Source: Bacteroidota bacterium
GTDB taxonomy: Bacteria > Bacteroidota > Bacteroidia > Palsa-965
Assembly (NCBI GenBank): GCA_016194975.1
Contig: JACQAM010000005.1
Coordinates: 85,266-149,265 of the forward strand
DNA length: 64,000 nt
Direction of reading: 5' to 3'
The notes below the pieces were generated by a model. It did no database searches and was not told where the DNA came from. It saw nothing but the letters and a program-made list of their open reading frames with translations. Every line of letters begins with the position of its first letter. The stretch's first letter is position 1. This document shows, piece by piece, positions 29,528-34,574 of this stretch. A program made the position numbers and the translations under genes.

Positions 29528-30337
29528 CTATTCCTCTACATATCTCACAGAGAACATTTCGCCTTTCCACCATTCAGCAGGGTGGATCGTGATAACATGT
29601 TTATGTTGGAAATGGTCATTAAACGCTGTGGCATAATCGTGGTTATAATTATTCCATTCAATTTTTTCCACATAAAATAATTTTTCCATTCCATTAATCG
29701 AAAGCGTTATGGTTCGTTTTCTATAAATAACGGTTGCCTGTTCTTTACTTTGAATGTCAATATATTTTGGCATTGCAATAGGGAATTTTAAATCATAAGC
29801 AGCTCCTTCTTCAGGTTGAATGCGTTTCACAATCTTCATTCTACCTATGAGACAATCCATGTTGACCGTATCCCTCTCAAGCATTTCAATCGTTTTTAAA
29901 TCGAAAGTATCATGGACAAATTTTTTCGTCATTACCTGACTACTGATAGCAGCATCAGTTACGAGCAGTACATTATTCTCGAATTTAAGATTTCTCGTCA
30001 TGCCACCATAAAACAGGGAATCAGTTTTGATCTTGAAAGCATATGCATAATTAAACTCGCAGGGATATTGGAACATCCAAATGGTATCGCCTTTTATGAG
30101 CCAGTTTTCTGTTCCTAGTACTGTTTGTTCATTTGCGTCAAGATTGTTGCTTTCATTGCTATGGTCTATTACAACTTCATTACATGTCCAATATCCTTGA
30201 AGATTATTTATAGTAATACCGGTCTGAATACTATCATTCATTTGTTTTTCCACATGATTTTTCTTGGCTGATTGCACACACGAAAAAATCGATGCAAAGA
30301 GAAGAAAAGGTAATAATAGTTTAAGTGAACTATTCAT
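29528..30337 (-). CDS. Hypothetical lipoprotein, possible immunity or accessory protein downstream of the DUF4157 protein
   Basis: Signal peptide ending in LFASIFSC (lipobox-like). 269 aa, 60 nt downstream and co-oriented with the DUF4157 gene. Confidence 0.5.
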   Translation of the reverse strand: MNSSLKLLLPFLLFASIFSCVQSAKKNHVEKQMNDSIQTGITINNLQGYWTCNEVVIDHSNESNNLDANEQTVLGTENWLIKGDTIWMFQYPCEFNYAYAFKIKTDSLFYGGMTRNLKFENNVLLVTDAAISSQVMTKKFVHDTFDLKTIEMLERDTVNMDCLIGRMKIVKRIQPEEGAAYDLKFPIAMPKYIDIQSKEQATVIYRKRTITLSINGMEKLFYVEKIEWNNYNHDYATAFNDHFQHKHVITIHPAEWWKGEMFSVRYVEE

Positions 30338-30397
30338 TTGCTATAGAATTTGTGCTGTCTTTTTCTAATGAAATTTATCTCTCTATTATTTAGAAAG

Positions 30398-33142: not shown

Positions 33143-33161
33143 GATGCAGGGATTTTTCTTA

Positions 33162-34574
33162 TTAGAAATTTTTGCGTTGTTCGTATCCTACACCGAAACG
33201 TCTTGCCGCATCCTGCGGAACCATTTCGTCGGTACAGATGTCATATTTGCGACTTGTCTTTTTGAATTCATCTTTCATTGCTTCTTCGAGTAATTCAAAA
33301 GTGATTGTTTCAGTTTCTTTTTCCATCGCTTCAATCACACCATCTGAAACGACATTGTAAATACTTCCGCCCGTAAGTTGATAGTTCTTTGCGAGTTTTT
33401 CTGTCAGACCATTTTCAAAAACATACGGTTCAAAAAGAGCGTTATTCCAGATTCTCAAACGTTCAGGATAATCCGGGAATGTGAAAGTGACAATCAGCCG
33501 TATTCTGCGTTGAAATCCCTTGTCAAAATATTGCGTGAGATTCTGAACGTTCGTAGCAAGAACAATTATTCCGGTGAATTCTTCAACTTTTTGCAGTAAA
33601 AACGATTGAAGATTATTCGCATGCTGATCGTGCGAATCGCTTACTTCCGTTCGTTTGCTGAAAATTGCTTCCGCTTCGTCAAAGAATAAAATGCAGGGTT
33701 GTTTATCAAAACGGTCAAAAACTTTTTCAAGATTTTTTTCCGTTTCACCAATATACTTGCTTACCATCTGTGCAAAATTTATTTTGTACACCGGTAAACC
33801 AAATTCATTTCCGACCGCTTCCGCCGTATGACTTTTTCCCGTTCCCGGATCCCCGCTGAAAATGCTGATGAAATTGTTACGCACTTTCCTGTTCTTGTTT
33901 ATCTCCCACAGTTTTTTCATGTGCTTGGTGAAATTGCCAAGCTTTGCAATTTCCCAACGTGTTTTTTCTCCGAGCATTACATCTGCCATAGTATGTGTTG
34001 CTATGCTTCTGCGTGCCGGAAAACCTTGCTCTCCATCCAATCGCGGTGACTCGCCGTGAAGAAGTGTTGCGAGAAACTGGTCATTGAAAATAATTTCATT
34101 ATCAAGAAATACTGAATTCGGATGTTGTGGTGTCGGCGAGATAAAACTGCTTGTAAAAATGCGTTGTTTGTTATGAAAATAACTTGCGTAATACGATCTC
34201 GATTCCTGATCTTTTCCGGCAAGCAGAAAAAGTGCGGTGCGAACCGTTGGATGAAAAATTGCCGAACCCTCTTTGAAAAATCCGCCTGTATAATTTTTCC
34301 ACTGTGGGTCATTTGCCGCCTGCGCGAGCGGATCAATTATTTCGGGAGCGAAATTTGCGGCAAAGGCAAGATTGAACAGCACCCGGTCAGTATCAGTAAG
34401 CGCATGCTCAGCTATCAGTTTTCCGTAAGAAGAATTTGGATCAAGAGGAGGTAGAGGAAGAAATGCTGGTGCTGAAGGTTGCATCATATTCTGAATGCAA
34501 CGTAAAAGCCAATTCAATTCACCGTTGATGCATTGGAAGTTGACCGGATTGCCGGAGATAGGTGACTTATCCAT
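33162..34574 (-). CDS. AAA+ ATPase (single AAA domain) located upstream of the DUF4157 gene
   Basis: Walker A GDPGTGKSH, Walker B ILFFDEAEA, sensor and arginine-finger regions. 470 aa. 20 nt separate it from the DUF4157 ORF. Confidence 0.8.
   Translation of the reverse strand: MDKSPISGNPVNFQCINGELNWLLRCIQNMMQPSAPAFLPLPPLDPNSSYGKLIAEHALTDTDRVLFNLAFAANFAPEIIDPLAQAANDPQWKNYTGGFFKEGSAIFHPTVRTALFLLAGKDQESRSYYASYFHNKQRIFTSSFISPTPQHPNSVFLDNEIIFNDQFLATLLHGESPRLDGEQGFPARRSIATHTMADVMLGEKTRWEIAKLGNFTKHMKKLWEINKNRKVRNNFISIFSGDPGTGKSHTAEAVGNEFGLPVYKINFAQMVSKYIGETEKNLEKVFDRFDKQPCILFFDEAEAIFSKRTEVSDSHDQHANNLQSFLLQKVEEFTGIIVLATNVQNLTQYFDKGFQRRIRLIVTFTFPDYPERLRIWNNALFEPYVFENGLTEKLAKNYQLTGGSIYNVVSDGVIEAMEKETETITFELLEEAMKDEFKKTSRKYDICTDEMVPQDAARRFGVGYEQRKNF

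Follow-up and report, generated by a model that had tools for sequence, protein, structure and literature searches.

What do a AAA+ ATPase, a DUF4157 protein and a small exported protein do side by side on a chromosome segment that encodes no contractile injection system? The question is raised by a stretch of 64,000 nucleotides from a Bacteroidota bacterium of the Palsa-965 lineage (GenBank assembly GCA_016194975.1, contig JACQAM010000005.1, positions 85,266 to 149,265 of the forward strand). This whole stretch is called the window here, and all positions refer to it. An initial annotation, made from the sequence alone, had described the three genes as a free-standing cassette, possibly an effector-loading or processing module or a toxin-immunity system of unknown mechanism. 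The three genes entered the chromosome as a single unit, the ATPase belongs to a family that is encoded in operons of extracellular contractile injection systems (eCIS), and the C-terminal region of the DUF4157 protein is confidently predicted to fold like a carboxylate-amine ligase. On balance we lean towards reading the cassette as an orphan, horizontally acquired eCIS module that consists of a loader, a cargo and a partner or immunity protein.

The cassette entered a repeat as one unit

The locus comprises the following features (aa, amino acids; ORF, open reading frame; GC, fraction of guanine plus cytosine).

29335-29429, no strand: left part of a split 125-nt repeat, starting inside the lpdA stop codon
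29430-35019, minus strand: inserted cassette, GC 0.384, with the split repeat at both ends
29528-30337, minus strand: gene of the exported protein, 269 aa, intact ORF with signal sequence
30398-33142, minus strand: DUF4157 cargo gene, 914 aa, intact ORF
33162-34574, minus strand: AAA+ ATPase gene, 470 aa, intact ORF; N-domain of ~230 aa and one AAA module
34575-35019, minus strand: non-coding leader of 445 bp on the insert, presumed promoter region
35020-35058, no strand: right part of the split repeat, beginning with the second copy of the target-site duplication

The coordinates of the three minus-strand genes are exactly those given before, as is the gap of 60 nt between the 914-aa and the 269-aa gene; the gap between the ATPase and the 914-aa gene measures 19 nt and not 20. 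With their non-coding flanks, 445 bp upstream and 98 bp downstream, the genes form an insert of 5,590 bp. A 9-bp target-site duplication, CTTGCCCGC, is found at 29421-29429 and 35020-35028, and this 9-mer occurs in the window at both junctions and in an intact repeat copy, nowhere else. If 29335-29429 is joined to 35029-35058, a 125-nt element is restored which is identical at 123 of 125 positions to the copy at 58351-58475. This copy and another at 61889-61996 are intact, the termini of the element are inverted (AGGGCATCTCTAA...TTAGAGATGCCCT), and its terminal 13-mer occurs nine times in the window where 0.05 occurrences are expected. The split repeat and the 9-bp duplication indicate that the cassette entered as one unit. 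It is a single, horizontally acquired unit inserted into a pre-existing repeat resembling miniature inverted-repeat transposable elements (MITEs). The initial annotation had seen two copies of this repeat flanking the cassette; the repeat is real, and the supposed copies are the halves of one copy that was split.

The base composition points in the same direction. The insert has a GC of 0.384, the rest of the window 0.431. Compared with 40 window genes (mean 0.434), the 269-aa gene is lowest (0.348, z = -3.6), followed by the 914-aa gene (0.385, z = -2.0), which had been called AT-richer by eye, and the ATPase gene is only mildly low (0.415, z = -0.8). The earlier suspicion of horizontal acquisition is borne out by the split repeat with its 9-bp duplication. 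Among the hallmarks of a transposon the target-site duplication is present, and neither terminal inverted repeats at the insert ends nor a transposase or integrase gene within the insert was detected. A tblastn search of the cargo C-terminal family against known plasmids and phages gave no match. JGI metagenomes were also searched by exact match for the uninterrupted site, with 0 matches, which is uninformative.

The clean junctions bear on one alternative, namely that the genes are the decaying rest of an eCIS locus whose structural genes were deleted. ATPase and DUF4157 genes are normally found at the 3' end of eCIS operons, which would suit such a fragment. However, all three ORFs are intact and retain their conserved motifs, the exact insertion with its 9-bp duplication is no deletion scar, and the free-standing arrangement recurs in unrelated genomes (loci L021/22 and L025/36 of the survey below). 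A degraded eCIS remnant was rejected on these junctions and is very improbable.

The 445-bp leader contains no promoter motif above background. A scan for sigma-70 promoters and terminators did not exceed the shuffled background, and the Bacteroidota motif TAnnTTTG was not found upstream of the cassette genes.

The MITE-like family itself is intergenic and consists of elements of ~47-125 nt at 17130-17176, 27829-27841, 58351-58475 and 61889-61996 in addition to the split copy. The copy at 61889 lacks 17 nt exactly where the cassette entered the split copy, so this position within the element may be an insertion hotspot.

The 914-aa protein has the layout of an eCIS cargo

The protein can be divided into five parts, all encoded on the minus strand.

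32726-33142, minus strand: aa 1-139, polar leader without Sec signal, candidate eCIS loading sequence
32498-32725, minus strand: aa 140-215, DUF4157/eCIS_core zincin-like domain, from Pfam and alignment
31628-32476, minus strand: aa 223-505, first strand of the ligase domain and an insertion of ~270 aa, from alignment and model
30464-31627, minus strand: aa 506-893, core of the ACD-like ligase module (see below), from alignment and model
30401-30463, minus strand: aa 894-914, conserved tail DTPDDPSTAGKNEASKTGLKK, predicted to be disordered

Profile searches matched both larger proteins of the cassette as had been anticipated, the 914-aa protein to PF13699 (DUF4157, now named eCIS_core) and the 470-aa protein to PF00004, and the motifs that had been read by eye (GDPGTGKS, ILFFDEAE and LLAHELTHTLQH) are all present. 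The PF13699 match covers aa 140-215 with an E-value of 8e-28 and 96.8 bits against a cut-off of 22. The HExxH motif (H205-E206-xx-H209) is invariant in 22 homologues, and the protein is a member of this family. The domain does not form the extreme N-terminus, as had been assumed, since it is preceded by the 139-aa leader. This leader is polar (mean Kyte-Doolittle hydropathy -1.24, 23% hydrophobic residues), lacks a Sec signal and bears a conserved PGDxxExEADxxA motif at aa 76-90; from its composition it would be disordered. A leader without Sec signal, an optional DUF4157 domain and an effector domain are the layout of eCIS cargo, and all three are found here.

About 28 database proteins match the 914-aa protein over 65-96% of its length with 33-49% identity, and hundreds more match the DUF4157 part only. 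In the alignment of the homologues a strongly conserved region of ~690 aa follows DUF4157. Its invariant blocks are RSMKFEFQT, LLPRKFG, two copies of NPNTFEF...VHLD...GHVK.M, EQTAIELQSE..G.LEFETPKWF, AKIQ.SE, SK..F.LMARTNF, FEVRG and, as the terminal block, DTPDDPTTP..NE.SKTGLK. The part at aa 223-505 starts with the RSMKFEFQT strand, which carries the invariant K226, E228 and Q230, and the LLPRKFG loop. They are followed by the ~270-aa insertion, which consists of two beta-rich repeats (NPNTFEF...VHLD...GxVK.M). In short relatives without the insertion the K-F-E-F-Q strand leads almost directly to ELQSE/EFET, which indicates that the two-repeat insertion is specific to the subfamily of the window protein. 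The tail is kept across phyla in the full-length subfamily with several invariant positions, and could be a short linear motif, i.e. a signal, a tag or a target mimic.

An exhaustive profile search among 1.84 billion representative proteins assigned 339 clusters to the ligase-like family, 123 of them at E <= 1e-30. These ~340 clusters (50% identity) span Bacteroidota, Gemmatimonadota, Cyanobacteria and Proteobacteria. Approximately 35 have the full architecture and more than 100 contain only a module of ~370 aa. Where enough N-terminal sequence is available, the module stands behind DUF4157 in 48 of 73 proteins. In other members the module stands behind a highly acidic leader with an 'LE[ST]PF' motif and is joined to trypsin-, C39- and transglutaminase-like domains. 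The variety of leaders and fused domains characterizes it as a portable effector module.

Eleven proteins (P0158, P0161, P0162, P0164, P0167, P0170, P0172, P0174, P0177, P0179 and P0180) share a second architecture without DUF4157, in which an extremely acidic low-complexity N-terminus of ~130-160 aa with a conserved 'GLE[ST]PF' motif precedes the minimal module and a further 400-1,000 aa that contain trypsin-like, C39-like or transglutaminase-like domains. They may be the cargo of a different delivery system.

The C-terminal region is predicted to be an ACD-like ligase

The AlphaFold2 model of residues 223-914, built with 11 homologues, has a mean pLDDT of 83.3 and a pTM of 0.68. Its predicted fold is closest to that of the actin cross-linking domain (ACD, PDB 4DTD), with an identity of ~10%, and also resembles glutamine synthetase (score 5.4), YbdK (5.3), Dop (5.2) and PafA (5.0). 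The sheet typical of ligases of the glutamine synthetase and glutamate-cysteine ligase (GS/GCL) type, which defines the ACD fold, is present in the model.

The invariant residues of the family are K226/E228/Q230, E514/Q516/E518, E524/E526 and E865-x-R867, the latter three groups forming the motifs ExQxE, ExE and ExR. K226, E228, Q230, E514, Q516, E524, E526, E865 and R867 are all placed on predicted beta-strands, and only E518 is found in a loop, directly behind the first of those strands that belong to aa 506-893. In GS/GCL enzymes the metal- and ATP-binding glutamates and an arginine sit on strands. The invariant acidic and arginine residues would thus fit a metal/ATP site of the GS type.

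The ACD is described as an ATP- and Mg-dependent ligase that joins actin monomers by an isopeptide bond between Glu270 and Lys50, and as a distant member of the glutamine synthetase family. A toxin of this kind has been found in an eCIS context before: the eCIS-associated toxin (EAT) EAT13, which is experimentally toxic and has been annotated as cross-linking actin, has DUF4157 genes on both sides and provides a precedent for an ACD-type toxin in the company of DUF4157.

At the level of primary sequence this kinship was not recovered. The Pfam profiles for ACD, GS, GCS2 and amidoligase matched neither the window protein, for which ACD gave nothing at E <= 0.1, nor any of 40 relatives with the minimal module at E <= 10. 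Two comparisons of sequence profiles with PDB chains, one at E <= 0.01 and one at E <= 10, found nothing, and a Foldseek search of the C-terminal model against the PDB gave nothing significant (best E 0.26). Because the fold matches without any Pfam match, we call the region ACD-like by fold and the family undescribed by sequence. The C-terminus of the cargo is, as a confidently predicted fold, an ACD-like carboxylate-amine ligase module.

The ACD of VgrG1 and MARTX from V. cholerae (4DTD) lacks both the ~270-aa two-repeat insertion and the conserved tail of the window subfamily. A further difference concerns the genomic company, as the window cargo is linked to an exported partner whereas ACDs that target actin need no immunity. 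This argues that the target is probably not actin, or not only actin, and speaks for a bacterial target.

The ATPase belongs to a family of eCIS operons

The earlier assignment of the 470-aa protein as a AAA+ ATPase is correct. It contains one AAA domain (PF00004, aa 238-346, E 3e-24) with an intact Walker A (GDPGTGKS, 241), pore loop (KYIGE, 273), Walker B (ILFFDEAE, 295), sensor-1 (ATN, 340) and Arg-finger region (FQRRI, 354), as is expected of an unfoldase that threads its substrate. The closest relatives in the PDB are p97/Cdc48 and then FtsH, which places it in the classical clade.

Decisive for its assignment are its relatives at loci that encode DUF4157 cargo. The ATPases of loci L010, L011, L021 and L025 are 32-36% identical to it over ~360-440 residues, and for L011, L021 and L025 the alignments cover most of the N-domain; among themselves the homologous ATPases share 40-45%. 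At L011 (Segetibacter) the ATPase gene (34% identity over aa 41-442) directly follows a CIS_TMP tape-measure gene (PF19268, E 1e-111) and precedes the DUF4157 cargo genes. At L010 (Ferruginibacter) a CIS_TMP gene (PF19268, E 1e-116) lies upstream of an array of DUF4157 genes, with the ATPase gene (36% over aa 97-442) at the 3' end of the array. L020, whose ATPase is 39% identical over the AAA module, is a full operon with genes for sheath, tube, Pvc16_N cap, AAA ATPase, a 901-aa homologue of the cargo, four further DUF4157 proteins and spike, and L035 has genes of this operon in common. The window ATPase, although itself encoded outside an eCIS operon, is homologous to these proteins and retains their motifs. 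With its homologues inside eCIS operons, it is a member of the eCIS-operon ATPase family and is assigned the role of Afp15/Pvc15/Alg15.

The mechanism can therefore no longer be called unknown as the initial annotation had it: the ATPase family sits in eCIS operons and some homologues of the 914-aa protein are encoded inside complete ones. The components tie firmly to eCIS biology, and the cassette is less mysterious than it had seemed.

A second assignment was considered and rejected. PADLOC models of IetA match the ATPase with an E-value of 1e-30, and the anti-phage system IetAS is likewise a pair of genes for a AAA ATPase and a protease-like protein. However, the NCBIfam model of IteA gives only 94 bits against a cut-off of 510, IetS is an S8 protease of which the cassette has no counterpart, and the genomic company of the ATPase family is eCIS. 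The similarity to IetA/IteA is generic AAA similarity.

Related loci with and without injection-system genes

Genome, metagenome and contig look-ups yielded 25 loci with informative flanks, the window included. They fall into three groups. Genes for CIS structural proteins are in reach at four (L020, L035, L010 and L011). Eight have an ATPase of the eCIS type and no CIS gene in the fetched flanks, namely the window, L021/22, L025/36, L009, L012, L014, L015 and L044. The remaining 13 have neither (L019, L023, L024, L026, L017, L006, L007, L013, L016, L032, L033, L038 and L043). The Pfam listing for 68 flanking ORFs comprises 25 of 68 families, and weak CIS matches at L006, L007, L009, L015 and L016 are possible; BLAST probes from L010, L011 and L020 were negative. 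Thus, homologous pairs of ATPase and DUF4157 cargo are not always embedded in eCIS loci, which would have made the cassette a mere fragment.

For the window, the earlier statement that no injection-system genes are visible holds. Pfam searches of the 40 other ORFs of at least 150 aa revealed no sheath, tube, baseplate, spike or type VI secretion system (T6SS) families, CIS protein probes from related loci did not match the 64 kb, and in both directions CIS structural genes are absent over 29 kb. By comparison, for 88% of EATs a distance of no more than about ten genes to an eCIS operon was reported, and homologues of the cargo at L020, L035, L010 and L011 do lie in such proximity.

All three genes of the cassette occur together at three loci only (the window, L021/22 and L025/36), and their order and orientation differ. 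What is conserved are the pairwise linkages, of effector with exported partner and of ATPase with DUF4157 cargo. The arrangement described before is therefore upheld as two linkages and not as a fixed gene order.

The exported partner follows the ligase-like family

The 269-aa protein has no Pfam match. Its signal sequence ends in the lipobox-like IFSC (C20) and is followed by a disordered tether of ~20 aa, a beta-barrel resembling lipocalins and potempins (aa ~43-145) and a small alpha/beta domain. All members of the family, which amounts to six clusters among 5.8 billion proteins, have a Sec signal sequence and the invariant cysteines C93 and C162, and only some have a lipobox. Export and not lipidation is hence the conserved trait, so that of the former label "lipoprotein" the export stands and the lipidation does not apply to the family. 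The structure model, which was built from six sequences and is of moderate confidence only, has its best fold match in potempin, a metallopeptidase-inhibitor lipoprotein encoded beside its peptidase (identity ~9%), and also matches BtaiB, a T6SS immunity protein from Bacteroides.

In iterative searches of the fetched loci the partner gene directly adjoins a ligase-like family member at no fewer than eight loci, in either orientation: the window, L003 (twice), L005, L007, L017/18, L021/22, L025/36 and the contig of P0003/P0123. The partner is therefore exported and genetically locked to this effector family; it tracks the C-terminal ligase-like region and not DUF4157 in general. Orphan partner homologues without effector remnants nearby are found at L027 and L029. 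Conserved adjacency together with orphan copies is a pattern typical of immunity genes, and we consider the 269-aa protein a candidate cognate immunity or inhibitor protein. Members of the ligase-like family without this partner precede other exported proteins, a shared family of ~438 aa at L006 and L026 and others at L009 and L023.

Two of the related loci are of interest in their own right. L003 (70-5444, from a metagenome-assembled genome of Fluviicola) is a tandem of effector, partner, effector and partner, in which both partner copies give identical tblastn matches to the window protein. L025 (= L036, 1-23492) is a cargo island with five DUF4157 genes, each followed by its own exported or lipoprotein partner, two paralogous ATPase genes of the eCIS type, a Peptidase_C14 gene (caspase-like) and an Amidase_2/SH3 gene; no CIS structural genes are in reach.

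The features of the partner also suit an ordinary polymorphic toxin-immunity pair which is delivered by another route, such as a T6SS-iii, lysis or an unknown exporter, with the ATPase as a chaperone, an unfoldase or a mere neighbour. DUF4157 has been reported in some T6SS effectors too, the fold of the partner matches a T6SS immunity protein, and exported partners as well as orphan copies are well known from interbacterial effectors whose site of action is the envelope. For one DUF4157 cargo from Bacteroidota, activity was reported only with a periplasmic tag, and the 13 solitary family members do without the ATPase. However, the window contains no T6SS genes, and a scan of nine alternative architectures found neither PAAR, VgrG, Rhs nor other known trafficking domains fused to the module. 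Moreover, the only structural-gene context identified for the ATPase family is eCIS, and PF13699 is very strongly eCIS-associated with a reported odds ratio of 2614. We regard delivery by such a route as unlikely.

In a different explanation the AAA+ unfoldase and the DUF4157 zincin act without a contractile machine, as a two-gene ATPase-protease module like the IetAS-type defence systems or as a split FtsH-like protease, and the barrel is a potempin-like peptidase inhibitor. The IetA match of the ATPase, the intact HExxH motif, the window without CIS genes and the best fold match of the partner are consistent with this, as are the eight loci with ATPase and no CIS genes in reach, among them L025 with its two ATPases, five DUF4157 genes and caspase-like gene. 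Against it speak the generic nature of the IetA likeness, the lack of a serine protease like IetS and the occurrence of this ATPase family inside bona fide eCIS operons. The partner furthermore follows the ligase-like family and not DUF4157, and being exported it would not meet the zincin protein, which has no signal peptide, in the producer cell. This explanation appears distinctly improbable.

Comparison with known systems

The closest known counterpart is AlgoCIS, also from Bacteroidota. According to a 2026 preprint its ATPase Alg15 is dispensable for particle assembly, whereas Alg15 and its ATPase activity are required for the loading of the cargo proteins Cgo1 and Cgo2. The cargo carries its loading signal in the disordered N-terminal domain, loading does not require DUF4157, and a leader may be recognised only by its cognate AAA+ protein. 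Set beside each other by description, Cgo1/Cgo2 and the window cargo have the same layout of a disordered or polar leader, DUF4157 and a variable effector domain, and Alg15 and the window ATPase are both single AAA+ proteins of ~470 aa with the Walker B near residue 295 (E292 in Alg15). In contrast to AlgoCIS, the pair in the window lies outside an eCIS cluster, has another effector family and is accompanied by a dedicated exported partner.

Afp15 of the Serratia Afp and Pvc15 of the Photorhabdus PVC occupy the position of this ATPase family in their operons, after the tape measure and before the cargo or toxin genes, and have been proposed to load cargo. Pvc15 is a larger ATPase with D1 and D2 domains, whereas the window ATPase has one AAA module and a distinct N-domain.

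The potempins of Tannerella forsythia, BtaiB and the 269-aa protein are small Sec-exported beta-barrels from Bacteroidota, often lipidated. The genes of potempins and BtaiB adjoin that of the protein which is neutralised, and the 269-aa gene adjoins that of the 914-aa protein. Unlike potempins and BtaiB the 269-aa protein has a second domain, and the targets of potempins are secreted peptidases with signal peptides whereas the 914-aa protein has none.

A model for the cassette

To the insertion, the family memberships, the fold and the genetic linkages described above a model can be added. The hexameric ATPase would recognise the polar leader, unfold the cargo and thread it into the tube of an eCIS particle, whose genes would lie in another part of the genome. 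Once injected, the ligase-like domain would refold, form an amide (isopeptide) bond on a target molecule and poison the cell, with an accessory or processing role for DUF4157. In sibling cells the exported barrel could bind and neutralise the incoming effector in the envelope. A matched ATPase that travels with its cargo would allow the cassette to use the existing particle of the recipient. The two ideas that the initial annotation had kept apart, an effector-loading module and a toxin-immunity pair, are combined in this model, for which the cargo layout, the ATPase family and the linkage of the partner argue.

Several observations weigh against our reading of the cassette as an orphan eCIS module. 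With no eCIS structural gene in the window the particle to be loaded is an assumption, and 21 of the 25 loci are not beside CIS genes, 13 of which lack the ATPase too. The ACD kinship exists at the fold level only (10% identity), with Pfam, PDB profiles and Foldseek all negative. Lipocalin-like barrels are a very common fold and make the matches to potempin and BtaiB no more than suggestive, and neither a mobility gene nor terminal inverted repeats were recognised in the insert. Finally, the expected site of action of an ATP-dependent ligase is the cytosol whereas the partner is exported, which is awkward for a simple toxin-immunity pair. It is possible that the partner catches the effector in the periplasm on its way to the cytosol, that the chemistry does not depend on ATP and takes place in the envelope, or that the partner has a role other than immunity.

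A bolder version takes the cassette for a portable CIS 'plug-in', in which loader, cargo and immunity protein move together and arm the particle of the recipient. The cargo would then be the first antibacterial protein-ligase toxin of the ACD type, which covalently modifies or cross-links a bacterial target and is countered by the exported barrel in the envelope. As a whole this is speculative and rather unlikely. In a radical variant, pairs of ATPase and DUF4157 protein may export or activate a toxin without any contractile particle.

AAA+ loaders and the role of DUF4157 proteins as cargo of eCIS were known before. New are a sizeable toxin-domain family, undescribed by sequence, which is recognised as ACD-like from its predicted fold, the systematic pairing of this ligase-like family with exported partners, and a free-standing cassette of loader, cargo and partner caught as a single insertion.

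Genes and repeats around the cassette

The neighbouring genes are housekeeping genes (thrS, lpdA, ribBA, recN and others) and many genes for proteins with a C-terminal sorting domain of the type IX secretion system (T9SS), which identifies the surroundings as a Bacteroidota chromosome. Two genes of the window encode prolipoprotein diacylglyceryl transferase (LGT) domains (11496-12236 and 54650-55864), the latter being the longer one with 404 aa and an N-terminal extension.

Directly downstream of the gene of a T9SS-sorted protein (35201-36889) a tandem array is located at 36953-37163. It has a unit of 21 nt and a super-unit of 42 nt in ~4.8-10 copies, with 93% matches at period 42, and is open in several frames. 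It is followed by a RES-domain gene (37695-38561), whose GC of 0.355 was noted as the lowest of the window genes. The RES region is bracketed by direct repeats of 51 nt (37170-37220 and 38776-38826, 82% identical). A 'GRKNYLFAGSHDGA' motif in a short ORF (37283-37576) is reminiscent of the C-terminus of an IS66-type transposase and suggested an IS66-like fragment, which a tblastn search against plasmids, without a match, did not confirm. The region 37170-38826, ~2 kb away from the cassette, has the appearance of another small insertion or of a toxin island.

A pair of genes for an RNase_T/ExoX-like protein and an FAA hydrolase (56788-58248) is syntenic with positions 4631-6111 of L026, where it lies a few kb upstream of a member of the cargo family. 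The organism of L026 is probably a relative that carries the effector at another chromosomal site.

Implications for eCIS effectors

If the reading of the cassette is correct, a toxin-domain family of ~340 clusters without Pfam description would be added to the ACD-related ligases, and the class of protein-ligase toxins would be widened beyond the few toxins from Vibrio and Aeromonas and the one eCIS toxin. Whether every loading sequence has a AAA+ loader of its own is an open question in eCIS biology and engineering, and orphan cassettes of ATPase and cargo bear on it. The matched-loader hypothesis predicts cargo that travels together with its ATPase, and such cassettes would offer natural matched pairs on which to test it. 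The exported partners would suggest, for some eCIS or DUF4157 effectors from Bacteroidota, that the bacterial envelope is where they act or are intercepted, and this link to the envelope would point to an antibacterial rather than an anti-eukaryotic use.

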